Below, in pieces: positions 5,043 through 39,577 of a stretch of DNA of 64,000 bases (within the stretch, counting starts at the first letter, position 1; each line of letters opens with the position of its first letter). Below the pieces are notes generated by a model. The model did not search any database and was not told where the DNA came from. It worked only from the letters and a program-made list of their open reading frames with translations. The DNA is from a virus: positions 32,001 through 96,000 of IMG/VR virus record IMGVR_UViG_3300034073_001700; one strand, written 5' to 3'. A program made the position numbers and the translations under genes.

Positions 5043-5435
5043 TCATTTTTGTTCCTTTGATATATAGATATCCTCTACCACAAAGCCATCTTCTCTATCA
5101 TATATAACCCAGTCTATAGACTTAATATCAAACCGTTCATTGAGTGCATTAAGTACCGTGAATTTATCTAGGCTACCGCATGTGTATAGGTCGAATTGTA
5201 GTAATCCTGGATCTACCTCGTCCCAGATGTGAAATGCTATATGGCTTGTCTCAATCATAACAATTGCTGTCAAACCTTTGTTTCCAGGAGCATCTACATA
5301 TGAGGCAAATGGTCCTTTGATTATTTTCATATCTACCCTGCGAACTAGGTCTTTTAAGAACTCTACCGCCTCATCCTCTGATCGGATCGGATTTGATACC
5401 TTGGCGTTTACGAGCATGTGCTTGTGGAATATCAT
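5043..5435 (-). CDS. speD: S-adenosylmethionine decarboxylase proenzyme (class 1B)
   Basis: GLTAIVMIETSHIAFHIW self-cleavage motif and DLYTCG. Confidence 0.85.
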   Translation of the reverse strand: MIFHKHMLVNAKVSNPIRSEDEAVEFLKDLVRRVDMKIIKGPFASYVDAPGNKGLTAIVMIETSHIAFHIWDEVDPGLLQFDLYTCGSLDKFTVLNALNERFDIKSIDWVIYDREDGFVVEDIYISKEQK

Positions 5436-5914: not shown

Positions 5915-6040
5915 TCAGTTGAATAATTCATCTGCTACACACTCGCAAGGTTCAATCCAAAAATCGTCATTGTCTCCAATGAAGATGTAGCCTCTACCTG
6001 AGCAAGGCTGACATTCAATTGTTTTTACTGAGTTTATCAT
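5915..6040 (-). CDS. Small Zn-finger-like protein (CxxCxGRG...CxC)
   Basis: Read by eye: MINSVKTIECQPCSGRGYIFIGDNDDFWIEPCECVADELFN; GGAGG SD. Confidence 0.6.
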   Translation of the reverse strand: MINSVKTIECQPCSGRGYIFIGDNDDFWIEPCECVADELFN

Positions 6041-6186
6041 TAGCGCACCTCCATGCTATCTACTGTGTAGCCATGAGCAACAAGGCTATCCATAAGGTTA
6101 TTTATTTGATACTCATTGAGCATGAGTCTATCTTTTACTGTGATGAGGTTGCCCTCTTTTTCTACTGTGTAATTTAGTGTTAGCAT
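6040..6186 (-). CDS. Hypothetical early protein (48 aa)
   Basis: Read by eye: MLTLNYTVEKEGNLITVKDRL...; AGAAAGG SD; TAATG overlap with next gene. Confidence 0.6.
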   Translation of the reverse strand: MLTLNYTVEKEGNLITVKDRLMLNEYQINNLMDSLVAHGYTVDSMEVR

Positions 6187-6212: not shown

Positions 6213-6234
6213 ATTCTATACCCTGCCACTGACA
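6213..6234 (-). promoter_or_regulatory. PafBC-type (RecA-NDp) promoter
   Basis: TGTCAG-N10-TAGAAT. Confidence 0.7.
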
Positions 6235-6273
6235 TTTTGGGGTGTCTGTGGGCTATCCCCTTTGTGATTTACC

Positions 6274-6399
6274 TCACATTGGAGGAGCGAAGATAGCGAG
6301 AAGCGTAAGTTCAATTGTGATAATTGTCACAAAAGCGACAAGCGCCCAAGGCGAATCGGAGGTGAGTAGGTCAAAAGTTTTATTCATAATGTTTTTCAT
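6274..6399 (-). CDS. Small membrane peptide (41 aa)
   Basis: Read by eye: MKNIMNKTFDLLTSDSPWALVAFVTIITIELTLLAIFAPPM; GAAAGG SD. Confidence 0.5.
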   Translation of the reverse strand: MKNIMNKTFDLLTSDSPWALVAFVTIITIELTLLAIFAPPM

Positions 6400-6431
6400 T
6401 TTTAGTTTACCTTTCATTTTGTTATAGGAGA

Positions 6432-6460
6432 ATAATAACATAATAAACTGACAAAGTCAA
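6432..6460 (-). promoter_or_regulatory. PafBC-type promoter with sigmaA -35
   Basis: TTGACT-t-TGTCAG-N10-TATTAT. Confidence 0.7.
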
Positions 6461-6465
6461 GAATA

Positions 6466-6620
6466 AACACGCCCAAGTTTTGTGGTGTTGGTCACATGTC
6501 CCAAATGTCCGATTTTGCTAGGCGATCTCCTAGCCCACGCAGTCGGGCGTGTCGCAGTGTCCGTTTTGTTACGTTTTACGTGTGATAATCCTCACAAAAA
6601 AAGTTTTTAAAATGTCCGAT
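6466..6620. promoter_or_regulatory. Divergent control centre: CRP sites, WhiA-type boxes, BldC-type repeats, inverted CCTAG pair
   Basis: TGTGA-N6-TCACA at 6581 and a near match at 6481; GGCGTGTC at 6546; TGTCCG repeats; gctagg-cgatct-cctagc at 6517-6534. Confidence 0.7.
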
Positions 6621-6637
6621 TTGTTAGCATTTTGGAT

Positions 6638-6666
6638 TTGATTTTGTCGGTCTTTTATGTTAAACT
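6638..6666 (+). promoter_or_regulatory. PafBC-type promoter (perfect consensus)
   Basis: TTGATT-t-TGTCGG-N10-TAAACT. Confidence 0.75.
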
Positions 6667-6699
6667 TACAGAGTAAGAAAATAAGAAAGGTGGTCTAAA

Positions 6700-6879
6700 A
6701 TGACTAACACTAAAATTAAAGTTAATGAGAATTATTATTCTACTAATGAAACTTTCTTTTGTTGTGATGAACAAGTAATTAAAATGTATTGCGAGCCTCA
6801 CGGCGAGGCTATGGGTTGCTACTATTGCGAGTTTGACTACACCGAGCCTTGCGAGTGTGAGCCAATTCACACAAACTAA
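6700..6879 (+). CDS. Small Cys-rich early protein (59 aa)
   Basis: Read by eye: MTNTKIKVNENYYSTNETFFCCDEQVIKMYCEPHGEAMGCYYCEFDYTEPCECEPIHTN; AGAAAGG SD. Confidence 0.6.
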   Translation: MTNTKIKVNENYYSTNETFFCCDEQVIKMYCEPHGEAMGCYYCEFDYTEPCECEPIHTN

Positions 6880-6947
6880 GTGGCGTGTCGTTTTGACTTT
6901 TGCCCTAAAAAATGAAATAATAGCAGTATAAAGAAAGGAAAACTTAA

Positions 6948-7148
6948 ATGAAATCATACTCAATTCCAGACCTTCTAATTGGTCACATCTACTACCCTTC
7001 CTCTATGGCGAGGAAATACCAATACGGCGAGATTAACTACGCCTCTAAGCGTGATGACATCTATTTATCAGAAGGCTATGAAGCCTACGCTATCCGTTTC
7101 AATGGTTGGAAATGGGCTACTATTGCGGTGAAAGTAGAGGATAACTAA
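6948..7148 (+). CDS. Hypothetical early protein
   Basis: AGAAAGGA SD, own promoter. Confidence 0.65.
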   Translation: MKSYSIPDLLIGHIYYPSSMARKYQYGEINYASKRDDIYLSEGYEAYAIRFNGWKWATIAVKVEDN

Positions 7149-7266
7149 ATGAAACTTCACGAATTCGTTGAAATGGTTGAGCGTGAGCGAGAGGCTACAC
7201 GCTTGACAAACTTAGAAAAAATCGCTAAAATTAATAATAACAATAAAGAAAAGGAAAAGAACTAAA

Positions 7267-7524
7267 ATGACTAACGCTACTTATACCGATTACCCCTTCA
7301 CCCTTAATGGTGTAAATTTTATCTCACGAGTATTTACTCACTCACACATGGCGCAAACTATTGCGAGCCTGCCTGAAGGTATCTTTGCTCAATTAAATCA
7401 AGACGCAGTTTCAGAAATTATTGGTGACCCTGCTCAATTAACTATTGAAGAATTAGAAGATGAGTTAAATAGAGTTAATGAAGGTGGCACTCATGCGTTT
7501 ATTTTGTTAGGAGAAAACGCCTAA
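7267..7524 (+). CDS. Hypothetical early protein
   Basis: AAAGGA SD; 85 aa. Confidence 0.65.
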   Translation: MTNATYTDYPFTLNGVNFISRVFTHSHMAQTIASLPEGIFAQLNQDAVSEIIGDPAQLTIEELEDELNRVNEGGTHAFILLGENA

Positions 7525-7715
7525 TGATGACACGAAAAGACTATGTAAAAACTTCAAACATCCTAAAAGGATTTGCGGATGAAATTCATCCACAAGTCTT
7601 TGAGGATTTAGTGGAAGAATTCGCTCAATACTTTCAGAGCGACAATGATAGATTTGACAAAGCAAAATTTGAAAAGGCTTGCGGTGTTGATGAGTTAGGA
7701 CTAATTCCAGTATGA
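7524..7715 (+). CDS. Hypothetical early protein
   Basis: MTRKDY...DNDRFDKAKFEKAC, a recurrent small phage family. Confidence 0.7.
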   Translation: MMTRKDYVKTSNILKGFADEIHPQVFEDLVEEFAQYFQSDNDRFDKAKFEKACGVDELGLIPV

Positions 7716-7904
7716 GAATTCTAACTACAATTGTTCAAATTGCGCTTATTGTTTCTATTTATTACACAATAAAAATTGCTAATGAAGAAAACTAAATTCG
7801 CAACATGCGAGATTTGCGGTAGAATTTTTATCGCAGATCTCAAATGCTTTGCTTGCGCTGCTAAACAAAATTAATTTAATTTTCAACAAAAACCGCCTAG
7901 GGGG

Positions 7905-7925
7905 TTATCCACAGGGTTATCCACA
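7905..7925 (+). promoter_or_regulatory. Two tandem perfect DnaA boxes
   Basis: TTATCCACA-ggg-TTATCCACA. Confidence 0.75.
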
Positions 7926-7926
7926 A

Positions 7927-8018
7927 TGTGAATTAAGACACAATTTACGTATTTTGTGAATTTCCTCACAGATTTACGGCGTGTCTGATTTGAAATTGTC
8001 AGTAGAAAATGATAGGAT
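7927..8018 (+). promoter_or_regulatory. Two CRP sites, WhiA-type box and PafBC-type promoter
   Basis: TGTGA-N6-ACACA at 7927; TGTGA-N6-TCACA at 7955; GGCGTGTC at 7978; TGTCAG-N10-TAGGAT at 7997-8018. Confidence 0.7.
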
Positions 8019-8219
8019 AAAATCCTAAAATAAAGAAAGGAAAAACTAATGAAAAAAATTGTTCTTGTTAGTTATGTTGCTGAAGCAGATACAGATGTCG
8101 CTGCTATTTTCGCTCTACGCCGTTCTCTCGCTTATTTACCTGAAAGCGAATTAGAAAAGTTTGAAGCGTTTAATGTTGTTGATTTTGAAGGTAATCAAGT
8201 AGAAGGGTTGTTGGTATAA

Positions 8220-8717
8220 ATGGGTTTGGACATGTATCTAAGTGCCCGTAAGCACGTTGAAAAAATTCAATGGGATAAACTTGATCGTGATAGCGATACA
8301 AGGTATTCTGATGCTACCGCTCCACAATGGTTTGATGTAGTCAATGCTGCTGGTGTTGCTACTCTTGTCGATAAAGAAAGTATCTATGGTGTAGATGTAT
8401 CCGTCAATGTTGCTTATTGGCGTAAGTCTAATCAGATACACAATTGGTTTGTGATTAATGTTCAGCGTGGCGAAGATGATTGCGGTGAATACTATGTATC
8501 TAATAACAAGATAAAAGAATTGTTAGATACCTGCCGTGAGGCTTTGTCTAAGAAAGACCCTAATTTGCTACCGCCACGAGAAGGATTTTTCTTTGGCTCT
8601 ACTGATGTAGATGAGTGGTATTGGGCAGACATAAAGGACACTATCAAGCAATTAGATAGGCTTGTAAGTCTACCTGATTTTGATAAACTATCGTTCTACT
8701 ATCAATCATCTTGGTAA
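8220..8717 (+). CDS. Conserved phage protein (MGLDMY...YWRK..GFFFG..YYQSSW family)
   Basis: Recognisable widespread phage family motifs. Confidence 0.75.
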   Translation: MGLDMYLSARKHVEKIQWDKLDRDSDTRYSDATAPQWFDVVNAAGVATLVDKESIYGVDVSVNVAYWRKSNQIHNWFVINVQRGEDDCGEYYVSNNKIKELLDTCREALSKKDPNLLPPREGFFFGSTDVDEWYWADIKDTIKQLDRLVSLPDFDKLSFYYQSSW

Positions 8718-8719
8718 AA

Positions 8720-8776
8720 CGGACAATTCGGACATGGTGTGTCTGATTTGATTTTGTCAGCGCACCATGATAGGAT
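8720..8776 (+). promoter_or_regulatory. BldC-type repeat, WhiA-type box and PafBC-type promoter
   Basis: CGGACAATTCGGACAT; GGTGTGTC; TTGATT-t-TGTCAG-N10-TAGGAT. Confidence 0.7.
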
Positions 8777-8802
8777 TTCAGTATTGAAAGAAAGGAAATA
8801 AA

Positions 8803-9021
8803 ATGGATAAATTGGAATACGCACTTCGTCAGATTGCTAACTGCGACCTATGCTTAGGCAGAGGTGTTGATTATTGGGCTAATGGCGAGGACTATGATTT
8901 TGAGGATTGTGTTTGTAATCCTTATGGAATTATCCTTGATGAAACTGGAGAGGTAATTTGGGATAATGGCTTATCAAGCGAGGCAGAATTATCTATCTTT
9001 GCTACTGCGGAGGCTAACTAA
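8803..9021 (+). CDS. Small Zn-finger-like protein
   Basis: CDLCLGRG...CVC; same pattern as 5915-6040. Confidence 0.65.
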   Translation: MDKLEYALRQIANCDLCLGRGVDYWANGEDYDFEDCVCNPYGIILDETGEVIWDNGLSSEAELSIFATAEAN

Positions 9022-9023
9022 TA

Positions 9024-9305
9024 ATGGGAAGTAATTTTGCTAATGATTTGGCTTTGGCTGATAATCTAACTATTGAAACTCAGATAGAGATACACTTATC
9101 TGCTAATCACTACCCGCCCGTTCCTAAGACTATGGTTCAGCCTTGTGTTGAAGCCATAGATGCGGTCAATGACTTAGGGCTATGGGATTTGGAAATACCG
9201 CTACCCGAAGGCGTGTCATGGAAAGGTTTGACAACTGCCCCTGCTCATGCCATAATTGAAGCACACCACCTAAATGCGTGGATTATTGAAAGAGAGGAAT
9301 ACTAA
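9024..9305 (+). CDS. Hypothetical early protein
   Basis: HLSANHYPPVP...HHL motifs; operonic. Confidence 0.65.
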   Translation: MGSNFANDLALADNLTIETQIEIHLSANHYPPVPKTMVQPCVEAIDAVNDLGLWDLEIPLPEGVSWKGLTTAPAHAIIEAHHLNAWIIEREEY

Positions 9306-9446
9306 AATGGCTAAAGTAAAAGAGATTTGGTCGTCTAAAATAACTTCAGACATGGTTTCTAACCTTGATGAAGATACTATTGAAGAATTAGTGGAAGCAC
9401 TAAATGATACAGTAATGGCAACCTGCGAGGATTTTGGAGTAGAATA

Positions 9447-9662
9447 ATGGAATACTTATACTCAGTAACTTGTACCTATGACGGAGAGCGCACCCCTCGT
9501 TGGGTGGGTCGTTATAGTGACGCACTATCGGCGGTAGAAACTTATCAAAAGTTTGTAGACCACGGAACTGCCTTAGAATACGCAACAATAAACTTGGCAG
9601 AGCCTAATGGAAAATTACATACCAAAAATCTCTATGCTAATGGAGAGATGAGCACTCGCTAA
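9447..9662 (+). CDS. Hypothetical early protein
   Basis: GGAG SD; operonic. Confidence 0.6.
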   Translation: MEYLYSVTCTYDGERTPRWVGRYSDALSAVETYQKFVDHGTALEYATINLAEPNGKLHTKNLYANGEMSTR

Positions 9663-9893
9663 ATGTCTGCTACAATGTTAAGCATGGAAGATTTCACTGC
9701 GGTAGACATTCTCAATGCCGACCAATTAGAAGTAGGAGATCTAATTGGTATCGGTGATGAGGTTGTAAAAGTTCTCGGTATTCAACCACTTCACTATGGA
9801 TTTAATCTTGCTATTGAAAATAATTTTGGCGAAAAAGATTTTGTTGATGTAAGCGAAGATGATAAATTTAATTTATATATAGAAAATTTCTAA
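9663..9893 (+). CDS. Hypothetical SH3-like protein
   Basis: ADQLEVGDLI beta-rich pattern. Confidence 0.55.
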   Translation: MSATMLSMEDFTAVDILNADQLEVGDLIGIGDEVVKVLGIQPLHYGFNLAIENNFGEKDFVDVSEDDKFNLYIENF

Positions 9894-9960
9894 AACCGCC
9901 TAGCCAATTCGGACATTTCGGGCATTTGCATTTTTTGTATTTTTATGATAAGATTAATTT

Positions 9961-10098
9961 ATGTTTAAGAAAACGGCTGAAGAAATTCGGAGATTACAAG
10001 ACCTCCGCAGATCTAATGCTGCCCAACCATTAAGGAACAAAAAACAATACTCTCGCAAGATTAAGCACAAAAAATTTGACTTCACAGAAAATAAATGA
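9961..10098 (+). CDS. Small basic protein (45 aa), leaderless
   Basis: Read by eye: MFKKTAEEIRRLQDLRRSNAAQPLRNKKQYSRKIKHKKFDFTENK; TAAGAT 6 nt upstream of ATG. Confidence 0.6.
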   Translation: MFKKTAEEIRRLQDLRRSNAAQPLRNKKQYSRKIKHKKFDFTENK

Positions 10099-10124
10099 TA
10101 GAATTGTAAAAAAGAAAGGACCCA

Positions 10125-10844
10125 ATGAAACTAAAACGTTCAATGGATAGGAAGGTGACTAATGCAGTCTCAAGAAATGGAAAAACCCCAACAATTGCCA
10201 ACACTTTTGGACTCCCTGCTGGAAAGGCTTTCTCGTGCCCTGGTGCCACTAACACTTGTGAGAGCGTATGCTACGCAGGAAAACTCGAAAGAGTATACAA
10301 AGGAGTAAAAGCAGTATTATTACACAATTGGGAATTACTCAAAGACGCAGACCATGACACTATGGAAGCGTTATTGCAAGATATGATTGATGATTTCAAG
10401 AAAGATTGCGATAAGCGTAATGCGCCTAAGTTATTCCGTATTCACTGGGATGGAGATTTCTTTAGTGATGAGTATGCATTCGTATGGAAGCATATCGTAC
10501 TAAATAATCCTGATGTTAAATTTTGGGTATACACTCGTGTGGCTACCGCCGCAAATATCCTAAAGGGTATTGAAAACCTATCTCTCTATTTCTCTACTGA
10601 TAAAGATAATAAAGAGATTGCTATTAGTCTTAATAAGGACAAAGGAATTAGATTAGCATACCTTGCAGATACCTTCGCAATTGGGCAGGAAGACCTAAAA
10701 GCAATGATTGGAAAAGTAGGTGCTAAGTGTCCTGAGAATAAAAAGGCTATTCCATTAATCTCACAGGCTGGCAGCGCATGCGTGTCGTGTGGCTTGTGTA
10801 TTGACGAGAAAACTGATATAGTATTCTCTGCTAAGAAAAGGTAA
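10125..10844 (+). CDS. GP88-family (radical-SAM-like) protein
   Basis: CPGAT..C...CYA, RIHWDGDFFS, WVYTR and C-terminal CVSCGLC. Confidence 0.75.
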   Translation: MKLKRSMDRKVTNAVSRNGKTPTIANTFGLPAGKAFSCPGATNTCESVCYAGKLERVYKGVKAVLLHNWELLKDADHDTMEALLQDMIDDFKKDCDKRNAPKLFRIHWDGDFFSDEYAFVWKHIVLNNPDVKFWVYTRVATAANILKGIENLSLYFSTDKDNKEIAISLNKDKGIRLAYLADTFAIGQEDLKAMIGKVGAKCPENKKAIPLISQAGSACVSCGLCIDEKTDIVFSAKKR

Positions 10845-11025
10845 ACTAAATGAAAATAATACTATTACTTGTGTGGGCATTGTTCTTGTTGTCAATATTC
10901 CATGCCCCGCTAAAGTGATCTACCTCACAAATCTCAAAATATGAGAAAATGTCAAAAATAACTTGACAAACCCAAAAATAAATGAAATAATAAATACCAT
11001 AACCGAAAACAAAGGAGAAATACAA

Positions 11026-11193
11026 ATGGCAGTATCAACAGCAACTTACAAGGTAGGCGACCTCTACACCTCACAGAAGTCAAAGGTGACAGGCACAATT
11101 ACCGAAATCAAGCCAAACAAAGACGGAAGTTCCGTTCGTGTAAAACTTGATGTCAATGGTAGCCCACGCTGGACTACTTGGACAGCAAAGTAA
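11026..11193 (+). CDS. Small SH3-like protein
   Basis: Start moved to MAVST after AAGGAG SD; YKVGDLY...VTG motif. Confidence 0.65.
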   Translation: MAVSTATYKVGDLYTSQKSKVTGTITEIKPNKDGSSVRVKLDVNGSPRWTTWTAK

Positions 11194-11210
11194 TTCTCAA
11201 TACGAGAAAT

Positions 11211-11238
11211 GTCCTGAGCATGACAACTAAAACTGCTC
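11211..11238 (+). ncRNA. Repeated pseudoknot motif, copy 1
   Basis: GTC-CTGAGCAT-GAC-AACTAAAAC-TGCTC. Confidence 0.7.
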
Positions 11239-11297
11239 AACTTGATTTTCTAACATTTTTGTGTTAGACTAAATACAACCCAAACGAAAGGATAACA

Positions 11298-11720
11298 ATG
11301 GCAAGAAATGGAAAAGCCATAAATGTCAAGATTGCTACAACCAAAGTAATCAAGGCACTTGAAACTAAGTTAGCCGAAATCAACAAGAATAAGGCTAATC
11401 AAAAAGTCAATGAGGAGAAACACTCAAAGGCTATGGAGAAGTATAATAAGGAAGTCGCTAAACTTGCGGTATCCGCTATCGCTAAGGCAACTGACTTGTC
11501 TGCTCACACTCGCTATAATGGTGAAATCGCAGTATCTTTCAACTTACCTAAAGATACTATTGAACTACCTGCTGAACCTGAAAAGGATTTTGATACCTAC
11601 CACGATTGGCAGTATCGTGAGATGATAGAGGAAATTGAGAACGCAATTCGTATTCTCAAGATGACAGATGAGGAAGTAGTTTCTACTTCTACTTACAACG
11701 CTATCGCAAGATACCTATAA
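11298..11720 (+). CDS. Hypothetical coiled-coil protein
   Basis: 140 aa; GAAAGGA SD; TTGATT/TAGACT promoter. Confidence 0.7.
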   Translation: MARNGKAINVKIATTKVIKALETKLAEINKNKANQKVNEEKHSKAMEKYNKEVAKLAVSAIAKATDLSAHTRYNGEIAVSFNLPKDTIELPAEPEKDFDTYHDWQYREMIEEIENAIRILKMTDEEVVSTSTYNAIARYL

Positions 11721-11802
11721 TTGGTTGGGGGAGGGTATTTGACTCCCCCTTCTAAAAATGCTAAAATTAAATAAATAACCCAATAAACAGAAAGGCAAGT
11801 AA

Positions 11803-11970
11803 ATGACACTCGGAGGATACACTTATCAAGTAGGAGATTTATTCACTACTTCTAAAACAGGTGTTACAGGAAGAATAAACTCTTTCACACCTATTCGTCA
11901 AAATGTAACTCGTGTAGGTCTTACACTTAGCAACGGCGCAAAGCGTTTTGCTATGGTAAAAACTTACTAA
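11803..11970 (+). CDS. Small SH3-like protein, paralog of 11026-11193
   Basis: Read by eye: MTLGGYTYQVGDLFTTSKTGVTGRINSFTP...; AGAAAGG SD. Confidence 0.65.
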   Translation: MTLGGYTYQVGDLFTTSKTGVTGRINSFTPIRQNVTRVGLTLSNGAKRFAMVKTY

Positions 11971-12123
11971 TACAATTGTGGCGGGTTTCGGGTGTGTAAT
12001 CGGAATTCCCCCCGCCACAACTAAAAACTAAATAGAATTGGGTGATCGTCTGCGTTCACGGCAAACTGCGACATAATTCATGGTTGTGTTGATCTTTTTG
12101 CGAAAGTCCCTTGACACTCCCTA

Positions 12124-12165
12124 ACGCCTGAGTATGGAGGAAATCCTTTAGCGTCTAAACTGCTC
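12124..12165 (+). ncRNA. Repeated pseudoknot motif, copy 2 (with inserted hairpin)
   Basis: ACGC-CTGAGTAT-[ggaggaaatccttta]-GCGT-CTAAAC-TGCTC. Confidence 0.6.
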
Positions 12166-12289
12166 CCCAAAAATCCCCTAGGGGGTGTGATAATAAACAC
12201 AGTCCAATATGTGAGATTATTTACGTACTCGACTTGCTTTCCCCCCTAAAAAATGTTATGATTAGATTATCTAAAGAAAGGATAACCCA

Positions 12290-12553
12290 ATGATAGCAAC
12301 CGCTATTGCTTTACAAGAAACCAGCAAAGAGGCAGTATATGATGAAACCTCAATGATGATGGCTTCTGCTTTATTTCATGGCAGACACGAGATGGATGAT
12401 GAACAATTCCAAAGAGCAATTTTTATGTATTCCGCTCACCTCTCTGCTGTTGCCACAACTCTCGCTACAAATGTCCTCTTGACAAAAGAGCAGGTAGATG
12501 AGATGATTAATACCATACAAGAAATGGAAACAATGGGAAAGGACATTGAATAA
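12290..12553 (+). CDS. Hypothetical early protein
   Basis: AGAAAGGA SD. Confidence 0.65.
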   Translation: MIATAIALQETSKEAVYDETSMMMASALFHGRHEMDDEQFQRAIFMYSAHLSAVATTLATNVLLTKEQVDEMINTIQEMETMGKDIE

Positions 12554-12999
12554 TGGAAATGACTGAAACATTAGTGCCTGAGCACTATAATCCAAATCAA
12601 TTGGTAACCTATAAGGTTATCAATAATGGTGAAACCACATATCCAACCAGCAAGGTTGTTGATATCGAATGGAAATTAGAAAGTGCACGGGCTGCAGATA
12701 GACAACTATCATCTCTAAGACTTAGTGTCAGCAACTTAGAAGACATGCTGCCCAACTGGTTAGAAAATGAACCAGATACTGGCGAGATTGTCTCTGACAT
12801 CTGTCAACTATTCGGATTCAATCCTACCAAGGATGTTGAGTTTGAGGCCACGGTAACAATTAGCGGAATCATAACTGTTCCACTTGCAGAACTAAATGAT
12901 TTTGATATTGATAGTGTTGATTTAAATATCGATGCAAATTCTTATTCACATGATGTCGATATTCAGAATGTAGAAGTCGACACAATCACAACGCTATAA
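12553..12999 (+). CDS. Hypothetical early protein
   Basis: 148 aa; TAATG overlap. Confidence 0.65.
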   Translation: MEMTETLVPEHYNPNQLVTYKVINNGETTYPTSKVVDIEWKLESARAADRQLSSLRLSVSNLEDMLPNWLENEPDTGEIVSDICQLFGFNPTKDVEFEATVTISGIITVPLAELNDFDIDSVDLNIDANSYSHDVDIQNVEVDTITTL

Positions 13000-13036
13000 T
13001 AAATTTGCGGGGTTCATGAAAGGCCCCGCAATGTAC

Positions 13037-13106
13037 GCAGCATCCCTCTTTCATCCTTTCTTATAGGGATCTGCAAGGGACCTGAGCACGTCCACGTAAA
13101 CTGCTC
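13037..13106 (+). ncRNA. Anti-SD-loop hairpin plus pseudoknot motif copy 3 (candidate sRNA)
   Basis: GCAG-c-ATCCCT[ctttcATCCTTTCTTat]AGGGAT-CTGC, then GGAC-CTGAGCAC-GTCC-ACGTAAAC-TGCTC. Confidence 0.6.
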
Positions 13107-13149
13107 CAATCAATCTCCTAGCAGGTCGATCTTGAAAAGTCAAATTTAT

Positions 13150-13206
13150 GGCGTGTCGGTGCATTAAGTAATAGGATTTGCTTTTGTCGCTGGTTTATGC
13201 TAAGAT
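13150..13206 (+). promoter_or_regulatory. WhiA-type box and PafBC-type promoter
   Basis: GGCGTGTC at 13150; TGTCGC-N10-TAAGAT at 13185-13206. Confidence 0.65.
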
Positions 13207-13233: not shown

Positions 13234-14244
13234 ATGGCTCACGAATTAGAAACGCAAAATGGCGTTGCTTCTTTCGCTTCTTTTAGAGAACCTGCTTGGC
13301 ATGGTCTTGGCACAGTTTTCACAGAAGAAAAAAATACAGCAGAAATGCTTGCTGCTGCTAATCTAAACAATTGGAATGTTAGATTGGTTGATGTTGAAAT
13401 TCCAAATACTCTTACATCAGATAAGAATTATTCTTATGTTGTAAGAACTAACCCTACCGATAAATCTCAGACCGATGTTCTCGGTGTTGTCGGTGAGCGT
13501 TATCATGTTCTACAAAATGAGGATTTATTCTCTTTTGGTGACACTATGCTTGACGGCGGTGGCCGTTGGGAAACTGCTGGCTCCATTCGTGGTGGTCGTG
13601 TAGTATTCGGCTCTCTTGCTCTTGAGCGTGAGACAATTCTTGACCCTAATGGTGTTGCGGATAAGGTAAAGACTTATCTTCTAATCAATACCTCTCATGA
13701 TGGGTCTATCGCAATTCAGGCTTCAATCACGCCCGTTCGTGTTGTATGCGCTAACACTCTCAATCTTGCGTTAGGTCGTAAGGGTAAAGGCCCTAAGCAA
13801 TCTTTCAAGATTAGACACACACAGACCGCTAACGGCAAAGTTCAAATTGCTCGTGAGGCTCTTGGTCTTGCTAATACTTACATGGACGAATTCGATAAAA
13901 TGGCTAAGGCTATGATTGAAAAAGAAATCACAGCACAGCAATTTAACGACATCGTTCTCGCTGCTTATCCTAAGCCTGACAGCGACAAGAAAATCGCTAT
14001 CACAAAATGGACTAACAAGATTGATGTTATCAATGACATCTACACAGGCCAATTTAATGGCATGATTGCTAACACCGCTTGGGGTGCGTTCAATGCGCTA
14101 ACCGAAAGATTGGATTGGCATCGTTCTGCTCGTGGTGGTAATACTGAGGCAATGCTCGCTGCTGCTTCTGGTTTTGACCCATCAATTACAGCAGAAAAAA
14201 ATCGTTTGCTAAAAGTTGTAAAAGATGTTTTAGCCGTAGCGTAA
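13234..14244 (+). CDS. DUF932 family protein (TIGR03299-like)
   Basis: MAHE..PAWHGLG, ETAGSIRGGR, SHDGS, PVRVVCANTL, RHT, TAWGAFNA. Confidence 0.9.
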   Translation: MAHELETQNGVASFASFREPAWHGLGTVFTEEKNTAEMLAAANLNNWNVRLVDVEIPNTLTSDKNYSYVVRTNPTDKSQTDVLGVVGERYHVLQNEDLFSFGDTMLDGGGRWETAGSIRGGRVVFGSLALERETILDPNGVADKVKTYLLINTSHDGSIAIQASITPVRVVCANTLNLALGRKGKGPKQSFKIRHTQTANGKVQIAREALGLANTYMDEFDKMAKAMIEKEITAQQFNDIVLAAYPKPDSDKKIAITKWTNKIDVINDIYTGQFNGMIANTAWGAFNALTERLDWHRSARGGNTEAMLAAASGFDPSITAEKNRLLKVVKDVLAVA

Positions 14245-29057: not shown

Positions 29058-31142
29058 ATGTCAGAAGCAAAATGCCCATTCACAGGCAATAGCCTAACAA
29101 ACGAAGGAACATATAATAAGGATTGGTGGCCAAACCAGTTAGATTTGTCTCCTTTAAGAAAAAATTCAGAAAAATCTGATCCTATGGGAGAAGACTTTGA
29201 CTACGCTAAAGAGTTTAATAGTTTAGATCTTGATACTCTTAAGGCTGATATTGAGGAAGTTATGACTACCTCGCAAGATTGGTGGCCTGCCGATTACGGT
29301 AACTACGGCCCACTATTCATTCGTATGGCATGGCACTCTGCAGGTACATACAGAACAACTGATGGTCGTGGTGGCGCAGGAGAAGGCCTACATAGATTTG
29401 CTCCACAAAATTCATGGCCAGATAATGGTAATTTAGATAAGGCTCGAAGACTTCTTTGGCCTATTAAGAAGAAGTATGGAAAGAAGATTTCATGGGCAGA
29501 CCTCATGATTCTTGCTGGTAACGTTGCTTTAGAAAACATGGGCTTTAAGACTTTCGGTTTTGGTGGAGGTCGTGAAGATGTTTGGGAAGCAGATGATACT
29601 TACTGGGGTAGTGAAAAGGAATGGCTTGCAGACAATCGCTATAGCGGAGATCGTGAGTTAGAGAATCCTCTTGCTGCAGTTCAGATGGGTTTGATTTATG
29701 TAAACCCTGAGGGTCCAAATGGTAATCCAGATCCACTTCTATCTGCTCGTGATATTCGTGAGACATTTGCTCGTATGGCAATGAACGATGAAGAGACTGT
29801 AGCACTTATTGCTGGAGGACATGCATTTGGTAAAGCACATGGTGCTGGAGATCCTAAGCATGTTGGTCCAGAACCAGAAGGTGCACCAATTGAAGAACAA
29901 GGTCTTGGATGGAAAAATTCATTTGGAAAGGGTAATGCAGAAGATACTATTACAAGTGGTATCGAAGGTGCATGGACTCCAACTCCAACAAAGTGGGATA
30001 ACACCTACCTTAAACTATTATTTAAGTATGACTGGAAGCAGGTAAAGAGTCCTGCTGGTGCTACACAATGGATTCCCACAGATGAGTCTGCTGCTAATTT
30101 AGTTCCAGACGCACACGTTGAGGGTAAATTCCATGCTCCAGTTATGACAACTGCAGACTTAGCACTTAAGTTTGATCCAGAATATGAAAAGATTTCAAGA
30201 CGATTCCTTGAAGACTTTGACTATTTCTCTGATCAATTTGCTCGTGCCTGGTTTAAGTTGACGCATAGAGATATGGGTCCAATTGCAAGGTATCTTGGTA
30301 AAGAGGTTCCTGTAGAAGAACTAATTTGGCAGGACCCAGTTCCTGTATCAATTACAAAGGATATTGATGTAGAGAGTATTAAGAATAGAATTAAATCTTC
30401 TGATATTCCTATGTATCATTTTGTCTATACGGCATGGGCTTCTGCGTCTACCTTCCGCAAAACAGATAAGCGTGGTGGTGCAAATGGCGCTCGTATACTA
30501 CTTGAGCCACAGCGTAGTTGGGAAGTAAATGATAACTCAATAATTTCTAGCGCTGTTGATTTCCTTAGCACGGTTCAAAAAGAACATATGATTTCTATGG
30601 CAGATTTAATTGTTCTTGCTGGATGTGCAGCAATCGAAAAGGCTTCTGGAGAAAGAGTTAAGGTTCCATTTACTCCTGGTCGTGGAGATGCAACTCAAGA
30701 GCAGACCGATGTTGAGTCTTTCAAAGTTCTTGAACCTATCGCAGATGGCTTTAGAAATTATTTAGGAAAAGGCACTACAGTTCCTTCAGAAATTTTGTTG
30801 GTAGAGAAGGCTAATATGCTAAATCTAACCCCAGTAGAGATGGTTGTTCTTCTTGCTGGAATGAGAACATTAGTGATTGATACACTAAATAATGGCTATC
30901 TGATTAGTCTTTTGTCTGGACAAATTTCTTGGAAGCAAACATCTATTGATAATTTCCAAGGATATGTCAACGGAGAACTAGTTGGTAATGCAACTCGTGT
31001 TGATCTGATTACTGGATCAAACTCAGAACTCCGTGCTATTGCAGAGGTATATGCTTCTGACGATGCAAATGATAAGTTTGTGTCTGACTTTGCTAAAGCA
31101 TGGAATAAGGTAATGATGCTTGATAGGTTTGATGTCAAGTAA
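29058..31142 (+). CDS. katG: Catalase-peroxidase
   Basis: [50 protein letters not shown]. Confidence 0.97.
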
Positions 31143-34638: not shown

Positions 34639-36060
34639 CTATTTTATCACTTTAGTATTATAGGTTTCTTGCCATTTTAATATATCATTTTCATCATTTA
34701 ACAACGGCTGTCCTTTAATATTTAAACTAGTATTTAGCAATATTGGCACCCCTGTCATTGCATACCAATTAGAAAGAACATCATATAGCCCAGGGTGTTG
34801 ATCTTTATTTACTGTCTGTACCCTTGAAGTACCGTCTTGATGAACAACAGATGGAATTAGTTCTGGCTTTAAACATTTTGGAGTATATTGCATATATGGG
34901 GAGGCATAGTTCATATCAAACCATTTGCCTGCATGCTCTTCCATAATAACTGGAGCAAAAGGTCTAAACAATTCTCTTTTTTTAATTAAATTAACTTTAT
35001 CCTTAATATTTGGATCTCTTGGATCTGCAAGAATAGATCTATTTCCAAGCGCTCTTGGGCCATACTCTGCTCTTCCTGTTGCGACTGCAACAATTTTATC
35101 TCTAATTAAGCCAGTGATAATTTCTTTTACTGGATATTCCCCGCCCAAATCATATCCTAAGTATGGATGTTGCCAATTAACATGCTTGCCATATGCTGCT
35201 GTTGCTGCACCCAAAGATGAACCAGCGTCACCAGGATTAGGCATAATCCAAACATCATCAAACATTCTCCAAAGCATTGTGTTGGCTGCACAGTTAAGGG
35301 CACAACCACCCATAAAAACAAGGTTGCGTTTACCTGTAAGTTTCTGCGCCATGGCCATAAAATTAACTAATCTTTCTTCGTATACCCTTTGAACAGCAGC
35401 AGCAATATCAAACTGTTCTCTATGCCCTATATGTTCATTCCAGTCTATGATTCCTTTATGAAAATTATATTTTTGTGTATTTATATCTGGAAAATATTCT
35501 TTTACTTTAAGATAATATCTTGTCCAATCTCCATAGGCTGCCATCCCCATCATAATATATTCTTCTTGATTTGGCATAAGTCCTACCAACTGAGTGAAAG
35601 CAGAATAAAATAAGCCGAAACTAAATGGGTAATTCTTTTTGTATACTTGCTTTATTGAAGAGCCCTCTCCAACCCAAATAGTAGAAGTATTGTATTCTCC
35701 AATAGCATCGAGAACCACTATAACAGCATCATTAAATTTACTTGTATAGTAGCCAGCACAAGCGTGAGAATAGTGGTGGCTAAAGTATTTTACTGGTAAG
35801 TCCATAGGAATATTTGGTTTCCAATCTGCCGCTCCACCTCTTAACATTATTCTAGATCTTTTAAGCCAAGGCTTTTCATAATATGCTATGACATTAGGTG
35901 TCCCATAGTTTAATGCATCTAGTATAATTTCTTTATTATTGTACCAATCATTTTTTTCCTTACTATATCTTTCTGCATGACCAGCAAAAAGTATTTCTCC
36001 ATCTTTAATTAAAGATACAGATGCGTCGTGCGAAGTTTCATTTATTCCAAGAATTATCAT
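34639..36060 (-). CDS. Carbamoyltransferase (NodU/CmcH family)
   Basis: HHYSH, GGCALN, EYGPRALGNRS, RPFAP, LNTSLN. Confidence 0.93.
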   Translation of the reverse strand: MIILGINETSHDASVSLIKDGEILFAGHAERYSKEKNDWYNNKEIILDALNYGTPNVIAYYEKPWLKRSRIMLRGGAADWKPNIPMDLPVKYFSHHYSHACAGYYTSKFNDAVIVVLDAIGEYNTSTIWVGEGSSIKQVYKKNYPFSFGLFYSAFTQLVGLMPNQEEYIMMGMAAYGDWTRYYLKVKEYFPDINTQKYNFHKGIIDWNEHIGHREQFDIAAAVQRVYEERLVNFMAMAQKLTGKRNLVFMGGCALNCAANTMLWRMFDDVWIMPNPGDAGSSLGAATAAYGKHVNWQHPYLGYDLGGEYPVKEIITGLIRDKIVAVATGRAEYGPRALGNRSILADPRDPNIKDKVNLIKKRELFRPFAPVIMEEHAGKWFDMNYASPYMQYTPKCLKPELIPSVVHQDGTSRVQTVNKDQHPGLYDVLSNWYAMTGVPILLNTSLNIKGQPLLNDENDILKWQETYNTKVIK

Positions 36061-37752: not shown

Positions 37753-38037
37753 CTATATCCAGTACTTAAGTATAGCAGTTATGGCTAAAATTGTCCAGAG
37801 TATATTAAACCAAATTAGTGTGGGTATTGTTTTTACAGTAGAAGACCATATTAGCATTAGGCTTGAAGCGAGGGCAAAAATATAAAGCCACCACCATTGC
37901 TTATTAAATAATAGTCCTGGGATAATTATTACTGCCTTGGTCACAAAAGCAAAAAATTCAACAATATTAGGTTTATTCCAGTAGGATTTATTGCCCATGG
38001 TTTTTAATGCATAAAGCCAATCTAATTTAAAATTCAT
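37753..38037 (-). CDS. Membrane protein
   Basis: Three hydrophobic helices. Confidence 0.6.
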   Translation of the reverse strand: MNFKLDWLYALKTMGNKSYWNKPNIVEFFAFVTKAVIIIPGLLFNKQWWWLYIFALASSLMLIWSSTVKTIPTLIWFNILWTILAITAILKYWI

Positions 38038-39577
38038 TTAATTGCTCCAAAAATTTTCTATGCCCAATACATTCAAATTTTTTATAGTCTTGAACACTTG
38101 TAAAATAATCATAGTTATCACAAGCATCTTTATATTTTTGAGAATAGTTTATATATTTTTCAGCAAGACTCTTATTTATTTTATTAATTCCTAAACCAAC
38201 AACGAGCCAACTATCAAATGACCAATATGTTCCACTATCATGTTTGTTTGGAAATCTCTCCTGCCACAAATCTATCTTATTTTTTAAACTGTCTGGCGCA
38301 TTGTTATAAGAAAATTTTGACCAAAACTCTGTATCTTTTCTGTCTCCCATATAATGAAAATAAACAAACTCTGCTATATCATTATTCATTTTGACTACAT
38401 CTTTATTAAATTCTTTTCTTAAATTATCTGTGTTGCCAAACAACCACTCTGGATTAGAGAATAATCTTTTTAACATATTTATGCTCGCCCAAATAGAAGT
38501 AGCCTCTAATGGCTCTATAAAGTTTGATGCAAGACCTATTGCAACACAGTTATTAACCCAAGGAGTCTCATAACATCCAGCACTAAATTTAAATCCACCC
38601 TTATCTTTACGTGGATATGATGGCTCATACCCTAAATATTCTTCTATCTCTTGTACTGCTTCAGACTCTGATATCATAGATGAATCATATACATACCCGC
38701 ATCCAAATCTAGACTGTAAAGGAATCTTCCACATCCAGCCATACTTCATTGCTATTGCCTCAGTATATGGGGGAATTTCTTCTGTCATCTCAATAAAAAA
38801 TGGTAGTGCTGAATCTACTGGAAGGAAATCACTATAACTCTTCCACTCTGATTTAAATAGTTTGCCTATGATTAACCTATGAAATCCACTGCAATCAAAT
38901 ACAAAATCACATGGCTCCATACTTCCATCTTCAAATGAAACACTTTGTATATTATCATTGTAGTCTAGTGATATATTATTAATTGTTTTTTCAATTATCT
39001 TTATACCACGATCTATACCTATTGACTTTAGCCTATCGGCAAATTTAGAGGCGTTAAAATGTATGGAGTGGGACGCTAAATTATCATAATCTGAATTTAA
39101 ATTTTTAGTATAGGAATTTTTATCAACGAAAGGAACCTTGTTATCTTCTGAAATTTTTTCTATAAAGTCAACTGGTCCAAACTTATTGTTTTTTATAATG
39201 CTAGAAATTATAAGAGGATGGGTTAAAAGTCCAGCAGACCCCGCATCGAATCCTGCTGATGTAGATTGCTTTACCGAAAAGGCATGATAATAAAAATCAC
39301 CATCGTTGTTCCAGTTAGTAAACTTAATTCCATTTTTAATAGTGGTATCACAGTGCTGTACTAGATCATGCAATGGTATATCTAAACTATTAAGAAAGTC
39401 TACTATTTGTGGGGTAGATCCTTCTCCTGCACCTAAAATGCCAATATCCTTAGACTCAACCAATGTAACATTAAGATCTGGATATATCTTGTTTATATAT
39501 AGTGCGGTCAACCAACCAGCGCTACCGCCTCCAACTACCAAAATATTTTTGATGCTAATCTTCTTTACCACCCTCAC
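38027..39577 (-). CDS. Tryptophan halogenase-family flavoprotein (start uncertain)
   Basis: GGGSAGW, GAGEGS, GWMWKIPL, FIEPLEATSI. Confidence 0.88.
   Translation of the reverse strand: MRVVKKISIKNILVVGGGSAGWLTALYINKIYPDLNVTLVESKDIGILGAGEGSTPQIVDFLNSLDIPLHDLVQHCDTTIKNGIKFTNWNNDGDFYYHAFSVKQSTSAGFDAGSAGLLTHPLIISSIIKNNKFGPVDFIEKISEDNKVPFVDKNSYTKNLNSDYDNLASHSIHFNASKFADRLKSIGIDRGIKIIEKTINNISLDYNDNIQSVSFEDGSMEPCDFVFDCSGFHRLIIGKLFKSEWKSYSDFLPVDSALPFFIEMTEEIPPYTEAIAMKYGWMWKIPLQSRFGCGYVYDSSMISESEAVQEIEEYLGYEPSYPRKDKGGFKFSAGCYETPWVNNCVAIGLASNFIEPLEATSIWASINMLKRLFSNPEWLFGNTDNLRKEFNKDVVKMNNDIAEFVYFHYMGDRKDTEFWSKFSYNNAPDSLKNKIDLWQERFPNKHDSGTYWSFDSWLVVGLGINKINKSLAEKYINYSQKYKDACDNYDYFTSVQDYKKFECIGHRKFLEQLNEF

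Follow-up and report, generated by a model that had tools for sequence, protein, structure and literature searches.

Six candidate promoters share a TGTC hexamer at a fixed distance from the -10 element

The stretch of DNA analysed here, referred to throughout as the window, comprises 64,000 nucleotides (nt) and spans positions 32001-96000 of one viral record of 120,142 bp and 36.9% GC (IMG/VR record IMGVR_UViG_3300034073_001700). Between positions 6,213 and 13,206 it contains six putative promoters, P1 to P6, which are arranged around a divergent region of small genes and resemble in their layout the promoters of PafBC (RecA-NDp) type. In Actinobacteria, PafBC is the master activator of the DNA-damage response that does not depend on LexA. 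An earlier note on this DNA had listed six motif strings, each with a TGTC hexamer upstream of a TANNNT -10 element, and all six are present at the coordinates and on the strands it gave, with the spacer between hexamer and -10 being exactly 10 nt in 6/6 sites. The Shine-Dalgarno (SD) sequences and -35 elements that it had reported were likewise found. Judged by the features of an extended -10 promoter of the housekeeping sigma-A factor, the -10 is present in 6/6 sites, a TGn extension in 5/6, a -35 TTGnnn exactly 17 nt before the -10 in the same 5/6, and an SD (AAAGG, 15-20 nt past the -10) followed by an ATG (27-34 nt past the -10) in 6/6, the ATGs opening the open reading frames (ORFs) at 6186, 6399, 6700, 8049, 8803 and 13234. 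The site at 6213 has neither the -35 nor the extension. Aligned on the -10, the other five read TTGnnn / T / TGTC(A/G)(G/C) / N7 / TG / N / TAnnnT, and over all six sites the hexamer is TGTCAG four times, TGTCGG once and TGTCGC once. The sites and the genes they are predicted to drive are as follows.

P1, 6213..6241, minus strand: pure PafBC type, TGTCAGTG-N8-TAGAAT (TGTCAG-N10-TAGAAT at 6213-6234), lacking both a TTG -35 and a TG extension; predicted to drive an ORF of 48 amino acids (6040-6186, minus strand) and the genes to the left of that ORF.
P2, 6432..6460, minus strand: hybrid, TTGACT / T / TGTCAG / N7 / TG-T-TATTAT (motif 6432-6453); predicted to drive an ORF of 41 amino acids ending at 6399 (minus strand).
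P3, 6638..6666, plus strand: hybrid, TTGATT / T / TGTCGG / N7 / TG-T-TAAACT (motif 6645-6666); predicted to drive a cysteine-rich ORF of 59 amino acids (6700-6879).
P4, 7990..8018, plus strand: hybrid, TTGAAA / T / TGTCAG / N7 / TG-A-TAGGAT (motif 7997-8018); predicted to drive ORFs 8049-8219 and 8220-8717.
P5, 8748..8776, plus strand: hybrid, TTGATT / T / TGTCAG / N7 / TG-A-TAGGAT (motif 8755-8776); predicted to drive ORF 8803-9021 and subsequent genes.
P6, 13178..13206, plus strand: hybrid, TTGCTT / T / TGTCGC / N7 / TG-C-TAAGAT (motif 13185-13206); predicted to drive a DUF932 gene (13234-14244).

The pattern TGTCRS-N10-TANNNT is enriched in the window, with 8 matches against 1.88 +/- 1.51 expected and none of 100 shuffles reaching 8; two of the eight fall outside P1-P6, at 16076 and 61772, both on the minus strand. 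For the looser TGTC-N12-TANNNT there is no clear enrichment (17 matches, 10.9 +/- 2.9 expected, 2/100 shuffles reaching 17). Over the whole 120-kb genome there are 22 matches to the loose form TGTCNN-N10-TANNNT, and P1-P6 all lie inside 7 kb. A strict genome-wide screen requiring an extended -10, a TTG at 16-18 nt, an SD and an ORF returned 18 candidate promoters, of which five have TGTC at the fixed place. As a separate observation, the -10 of P4 lies inside a perfect inverted repeat, TAGGAT-AAA-ATCCTA (8013-8027), and the other five promoters have no such repeat.

The hexamer is retained at one position in related viral loci

At least 448 IMG/VR loci contain a relative of the DUF932 gene behind P6, and the best 80 of these (proteins 81-92% identical, 1.11 Mb in total) were taken as the related set. 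In these 80 loci TGTC[AG]G-Nk-TANNNT is matched 405 times at k=10, compared with 2-87 times at 13 other spacings, and three rearranged cores used as a control give 7-56 matches at every spacing. The matches comprise 327 unique 50-nt contexts with the consensus W-TGTCAG, in which A occupies position 5 in 96%; the bases after the hexamer are near-random and are followed by TG (73% and 77%) and then by TAnaaT, and a TTG stands at the -35 place in about half. Approached from the side of the promoter, the relatives contain 691 unique candidates defined by an extended -10, an SD and an ORF, and TGTC lies exactly 16 nt before the T of the -10 in 213 of them, the next most populated offsets having 34, 30 and 20. 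TTGAC is rarer in this TGTC class than in the other candidates (7% vs 28%).

Individual promoters can also be followed across the relatives. P1 (GACACCCC..AAAATGTCAGTGGCA...TAGAAT) is retained in five related loci (L002, L018, L019, L022 and L042). In the promoter of the DUF932 gene, the orthologue of P6, TGTC is kept in 58/79 loci by automatic call and in 62/79 by reading of the pattern listing; among unique sequences it is retained in 46/60, and the 7-nt stretch after the hexamer occurs in 37 forms. The hexamer is lost while -35 and -10 stay in at least 13 of the 79; L009, L013 and L033 are examples of related loci without it. Because of this spacing, position and composition, and because of the counts at the DUF932 promoter, the hexamer is, as far as comparison of sequences can tell, a selected and strictly positioned module that was added to promoters able to exist without it.

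The phage most likely infects an actinobacterium

The 120,142-bp record has a 115-bp exact terminal repeat and is classified in IMG/VR as having direct terminal repeats and being 100% complete. It encodes a 93-amino-acid WhiB protein (PF02467, 45.9 bits, above the cut-off), a GP88-family protein (E 1.8e-54) and a DnaE that is 52.5-55% identical to the DnaE of 120-135-kb Streptomyces phages, as well as DnaB and five tRNAs. The phage thus combines a WhiB-like protein with genes common to cultured actinophages (DnaE, GP88). Since whiB serves as a mark of actinophages in the literature (available parts of PMC10202952, PMC10914622 and PMC7771536), the host is most likely an actinobacterium. A domain search of the phage proteins found no WYL-domain protein. 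KatG, the phage's catalase-peroxidase, was tried as a host marker and proved uninformative, being 59-65% identical to proteins of many phyla.

The mycobacterial frame in which the earlier note had placed these sites does not hold. The phage is uncultured and not a mycobacteriophage, and pieces near-identical to it occur in an RNA library labelled aquatic metagenome; at 36.9% GC its host is certainly not Mycobacterium smegmatis, so that the reporter test proposed in that species would be heterologous. DNA near-identical to the window was not found in the phage collection searched. One metatranscriptome run, labelled aquatic metagenome, contains 6% of the sampled words, and 320 of its contigs could be placed on the phage, 54 of them at >=99% identity; close relatives of the phage therefore occur in this RNA library, which may also contain DNA. 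The summed contig depth is highest at 11396-11679, over an ORF (11298-11720) with a weak RegB-like match, and as contig depth is unable to rank genes this peak is a pointer only.

Small pafBC-bearing actinomycetes use the same layout before recA

In order to search for the promoter type in candidate hosts, we used three samples of genomes: 301 of the phylum of an Actinomycetota metagenome-assembled genome, a set from the class of the genome G191, and 281 of the class of a Streptomyces genome. The tallies of the phylum sample include unpublished genomes (G006, G023, G053, G087, G093, G125, G153, G179, G231, G244 and G273), on which no key claim rests.

The Streptomyces-class sample contains 19 genomes of at most 1.5 Mb. 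In eight of the 19, those in which recA was inspected, recA is preceded by cTTGTCAG-N7-TG-N-TACCTT followed directly by GAACAGATGTTC.

Genomes with the phage-like recA promoter: G710, G812, G828, G765, G747, G729, G671 and G843; single-contig, 1.33-1.47 Mb, recA loci of 48-52% GC.

Each of the eight has a pair of adjacent WYL genes along with four WhiB genes, and three of the small genomes have TGTCAG-N7-TG-G-TAGAAT before carD. In G710 the pair consists of a protein with WYL and WCX domains and one with HTH_PafC, WYL and WCX domains, followed by tatC. The gene order in Mycobacterium tuberculosis is pafB-pafC-tatA-tatC, which we take the G710 arrangement to resemble. On the strength of the recA promoters, the WYL pairs and the WhiB genes in these eight genomes, small actinomycetes bearing WhiB and pafBC appear to use the phage layout of TGTCAG, TG and TAnnnT at a damage promoter, and a small pafBC-bearing lineage of this kind may be the host of the phage. 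Their recA and carD promoters have TGTCAG, N7, TG, N and TAnnnT as in the phage; unlike the phage sites, they have no -35 and carry a LexA box after the -10. P1 and the recA promoter of G710 also share TGTCAGTGGCA. Homology between the upstream regions was considered and rejected, since the 40 nt before the hexamer align no better than shuffles (60/2000 for G710, 566-1846/2000 for the other seven) and TGTCAGTGGCA is all that is shared. GACAC, presumably the WhiA motif, lies 8 or 14 nt upstream of the recA TGTCAG in 8/8 loci (L255, L257, L259, L260, L261, L264, L266 and L267) and 7 nt upstream in P1.

In the phylum sample, TGTCAG-N7-TG-N-TANNNT gives 95 matches across the 301 genomes against 40 for the backwards control (3 of the 95 in unpublished G093); the matches are concentrated in few genomes, and ruvC is among the genes preceded. 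Of 20 small genomes whose recA upstream regions were read, three with higher GC have the TGTC motif, and the low-GC ones have promoters of the form TTGACA / LexA box / -10. WhiB occurs in 165 of the 301 genomes, none of which is both small and low-GC. The class of G191 contains many genomes of about 1 Mb, with a WYL gene in 5/5 examined. A further genome, G025, carries two WYL genes in tandem, and its recA is preceded by TGTCGC-N10-TATTAT; 12 nt after a TGTCAG-N10-TAAAAT site it also has an ORF that we provisionally took for an AddB/AdnA-type nuclease, an unconfirmed resemblance. WhiB was not found in G025, which makes it a poor host candidate.

PafBC is the favoured reader of the hexamer

The in vivo PafBC motif is given as tGTCgg(N10)tA(N3)T, with its 5' part at -23 to -28 and the GTC triplet read by PafB, and PafBC is described as inserting between sigma-A region 4 and the DNA at promoters without a -35, a mode termed 'sigma adaptation' (PMC8635444, in the part available). 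The consensus quoted in the earlier note agrees with this form. Its account of PafBC as a WYL-domain activator switched on by single-stranded DNA (ssDNA) also agrees with the available text of PMC11804915, according to which PafBC is activated when its WYL domains bind ssDNA, and enters the complex only together with RNA polymerase on promoter DNA. The assignment of the six sites to the PafBC type holds in part: hexamer, 10-nt spacing and orientation match the published motif, the element is conserved in relatives and it occurs before recA in genomes with pafB-pafC, but five sites keep a -35. Going by their elements, P2-P6 are better called hybrid promoters than textbook PafBC members. The motif is also written tTGTCRgtg-8nt-TAnnnT.

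We favour, with a probability of roughly 0.55, the interpretation that P1-P6 are promoters of PafBC (RecA-NDp) type in a phage and are probably wired to the ssDNA alarm of the host; it builds on the motif, its strict spacing and conservation, and the same promoter type together with pafBC in candidate host lineages. On this interpretation P1-P6 would be promoters of the divergent small-gene region, at which the host RNA polymerase, carrying its housekeeping sigma factor, would recognise the TAnnnT -10. TGTC(A/G)(G/C), 10 nt further upstream, would be a '-26 element' contacted by PafB, with ssDNA-activated PafBC, which the host presumably possesses, sitting between sigma region 4 and the DNA. 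The phage would most likely have copied a recA-type damage promoter of its host. The ssDNA could stem from phage replication or recombination, from breakdown of host DNA or from damage, and PafBC loaded with it would then boost transcription of the genes behind P1-P6. These may be early genes, and the incoming DNA of the phage itself, as the earlier note proposed, could conceivably act as the trigger. In the hybrids P2-P6, TTGnnn at 17 nt and TGn should give basal firing independent of PafBC, whereas P1, with only the -26 element and the -10, should depend on it. Extended to the whole group, we would put at slightly below even odds that a big, environmentally abundant family of virulent actinophages uses PafBC to activate its small-gene block, in response to its own replication or to host DNA breakdown, through modular promoters (-26 element, optional -35 and extended -10, CRP-type palindromes, TGTCCG box) that integrate several host signals.

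Several observations weigh against a role of PafBC here. PafBC promoters are expected to have no -35 consensus, and among the six sites only the one at 6213 is without it; as the other five combine TTGnnn at 17 nt with TGn, they would in principle need no activator. In the relatives the TGTC class has a TTG at the -35 about as often as the other candidates (56% vs 61%). An upstream TGTCCG box accompanies 64/213 TGTC-class promoters (30%) and 25/472 others (5%), with 1.3% expected, and PafBC biology predicts no such box, which another TGTC-reading protein could account for. The slot of the hexamer can be filled differently: a second promoter class with TTGnnn and an extended -10 has a C-rich run (CCCCTT, CCCCCC or TCCCCT) in the place of TGTCAG, and CCCC stands there in 81/472 non-TGTC and 20/213 TGTC candidates. 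The Streptomyces phage BillNye, a cultured relative by DnaE, has 0 TGTC[AG]G-N10-TANNNT sites in 127 kb; its host surely has PafBC. On the side of the bacteria, the phylum sample yielded the TGTC motif at 0/7 low-GC recA loci, a WYL domain in 0/4 low-GC small genomes searched and WhiB in 0/5 searched (two of them also among the four), and these genomes are poor host candidates. Two 1.1-Mb genomes of 33-34% GC in the class of G191 have one WYL gene each and LexA-only recA promoters, and in the genomes of about 1 Mb of that class motif matches seemed, by eye, about equal to backwards controls. Even the 19 small genomes yield no more than a twofold excess of the pattern over its backwards control (20 vs 10). 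The WhiB of the phage gave four weak matches in the 301 genomes (37-39% identity, in G231, G023, G244 and G270) and no host link, so that neither KatG nor WhiB ties the phage to a host lineage, and the metatranscriptome contigs carry no ends, strand or start sites.

A different TGTC-binding protein, encoded by the phage or by the host, could read the hexamer, in which case the likeness to PafBC would be convergent; it could for instance be a repressor shutting off early promoters or an activator directed at sigma region 4 in the manner of T4 MotA/AsiA. We regard this as unlikely, though a serious contender. The -35 and extended -10 already in the promoters would suit it, as would the second TGTCCG box, the GTGTC boxes adjoining the -35 of P4 and P5, the C-rich class, which looks as if the -26 slot encoded promoter classes, and the absence of the motif from BillNye. 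Against it, hexamer and spacing stay constant although the loci compared have different flanks and DUF932 proteins of only 81-92% identity, whereas operators specific to phages usually change from one phage to the next and can be displaced with respect to the -10. The same hexamer, spacing and TG extension moreover precede recA and carD in cellular genomes with pafBC, and no WYL domain was found in the phage, whose small proteins were screened for DNA-binding folds in part.

That the sites are decoys, soaking up RNA polymerase-PafBC on the replicating 120-kb genome and so blunting the damage and defence response of the host, appears improbable. Many sites per genome in the relatives (405 in 80 loci) and the additional TGTC boxes without a -10 further upstream would fit, and PafBC is said to regulate phage resistance in mycobacteria (work cited in the available part of PMC12848934). 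A pure decoy, however, would need neither the correct orientation nor the start codon with SD 27-34 nt downstream that all six sites have; PafBC binding and firing are also hard to separate, because PafBC joins only with RNA polymerase on promoter DNA (PMC11804915, available part). More improbable still is that these are plain sigma-A promoters in which the TGTC hexamer is a functionless spacer inherited by duplication of one promoter cassette. P3, P4 and P5 do share GATTTGAnnTTGTC and an ATG before the -10, as duplication would yield, and the 13 or more of 79 DUF932 promoters with -35 and -10 and no TGTC fit as well. Duplication sits badly, on the other hand, with 327 unique contexts in which the bases from hexamer to TG are near-random while TGTCAG is fixed, with a spacing peak of 405 against at most 87, and with a positional peak of 213 against at most 34. 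PafBC remains the reader we consider most probable.

Further motifs around the promoters

Boxes related to the hexamer lie upstream of several of the sites.

6505..6515, plus strand: upstream box ATGTCCGATTT, copy 1; its membership is uncertain, such boxes accompanying TGTC-class promoters in relatives.
6612..6622, plus strand: upstream box ATGTCCGATTT, copy 2; the TGTCCG within it begins 32 nt upstream of the P3 hexamer TGTCGG.
7979..7987, plus strand: upstream box GCGTGTCTG, immediately before the -35 of P4; similar boxes at 8739-8745 (P5) and 13151-13159 (P6).
-10 positions 10099, 11762, 12257, 14598 and 16250: candidate promoters of the second class in the window, also found in related loci L002-L081.

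In the relatives the TGTCCG box stands 23-40 nt upstream of the TGTCAG element, with preferred offsets of -56/-55, -48 and -39. Five perfect TGTGA-N6-TCACA palindromes, which we take to be actinobacterial sites of CRP/GlxR type, occur within 1.7 kb of the promoter region (6263-6278, 6316-6331, 6581-6596, 6856-6871 and 7955-7970), compared with 0.06 expected in the whole window and 0/100 shuffles reaching five. If transcription starts 7 nt past the -10, the centres of two palindromes lie about 62.5 nt (P4) and 64.5 nt (P1) upstream of the start. The word TTATCCACA, presumably the DnaA-box consensus, occurs exactly seven times (7905-7913, 7917-7925, 18079, 18720, 33556, 54818 and 55530), the first two copies being separated by 3 nt and lying shortly before P4; when one mismatch is tolerated the word shows no enrichment (29 vs 23.4). 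Four metabolic genes were also recognised.

29058-31142: full-length KatG catalase-peroxidase.
38027-39577, minus strand: tryptophan halogenase.
34639-36060, minus strand: carbamoyltransferase.
5043-5435, minus strand: S-adenosylmethionine (AdoMet) decarboxylase.

Significance and comparison with known systems

A literature search at abstract level, with subscription papers outside its reach, found no paper describing phage promoters of PafBC type, and to our knowledge host promoters are the only ones known so far for PafBC. If our interpretation is correct, phages of abundant aquatic actinobacteria, with at least 448 IMG/VR relatives sharing one gene of the block (DUF932), copy the PafBC promoter element. 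They would be the first viruses found to employ 'sigma adaptation', and would exploit a damage sensor of activator type instead of relying on a repressor being lost. The sites would furthermore offer a set of naturally occurring hybrid promoters, some with a -35 and some lacking it, in which sigma adaptation could be dissected, and a sequence mark linking uncultured phages to pafBC-bearing hosts.

The closest counterparts are the PafBC (RecA-NDp) promoters of Mycobacterium and other Actinobacteria, which have the TGTC hexamer with its invariant GTC 10 nt before a sigma-A TAnnnT and, like the phage element, are non-palindromic and orientation-specific. The phage sites differ from them in being viral and in preceding small genes of unassigned function rather than repair genes, in having a -35 TTGnnn and a TG extension in 5/6 cases, in using mostly TGTCAG where PafBC promoters have TGTCGG, and in the upstream TGTCCG box that often goes with the phage-type element. 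The nearest phage analogy named in the available part of PMC8635444 is that of the T4 middle promoters (MotA box, AsiA; 'sigma appropriation'). These likewise combine an element near -30, an adaptor between the DNA and sigma region 4, and control of phage gene timing, but the T4 adaptors are phage-encoded and remodel sigma, whereas here the adaptor would be a damage sensor of the host, in a phage in which no WYL protein was found. Some phages couple their transcription to the host SOS response via LexA or RecA. In these, too, transcription is tied to a DNA-damage signal of the host; they are mostly prophages and act by loss of a repressor, in contrast to the activator-type promoter that would operate here in an apparently large virulent phage.

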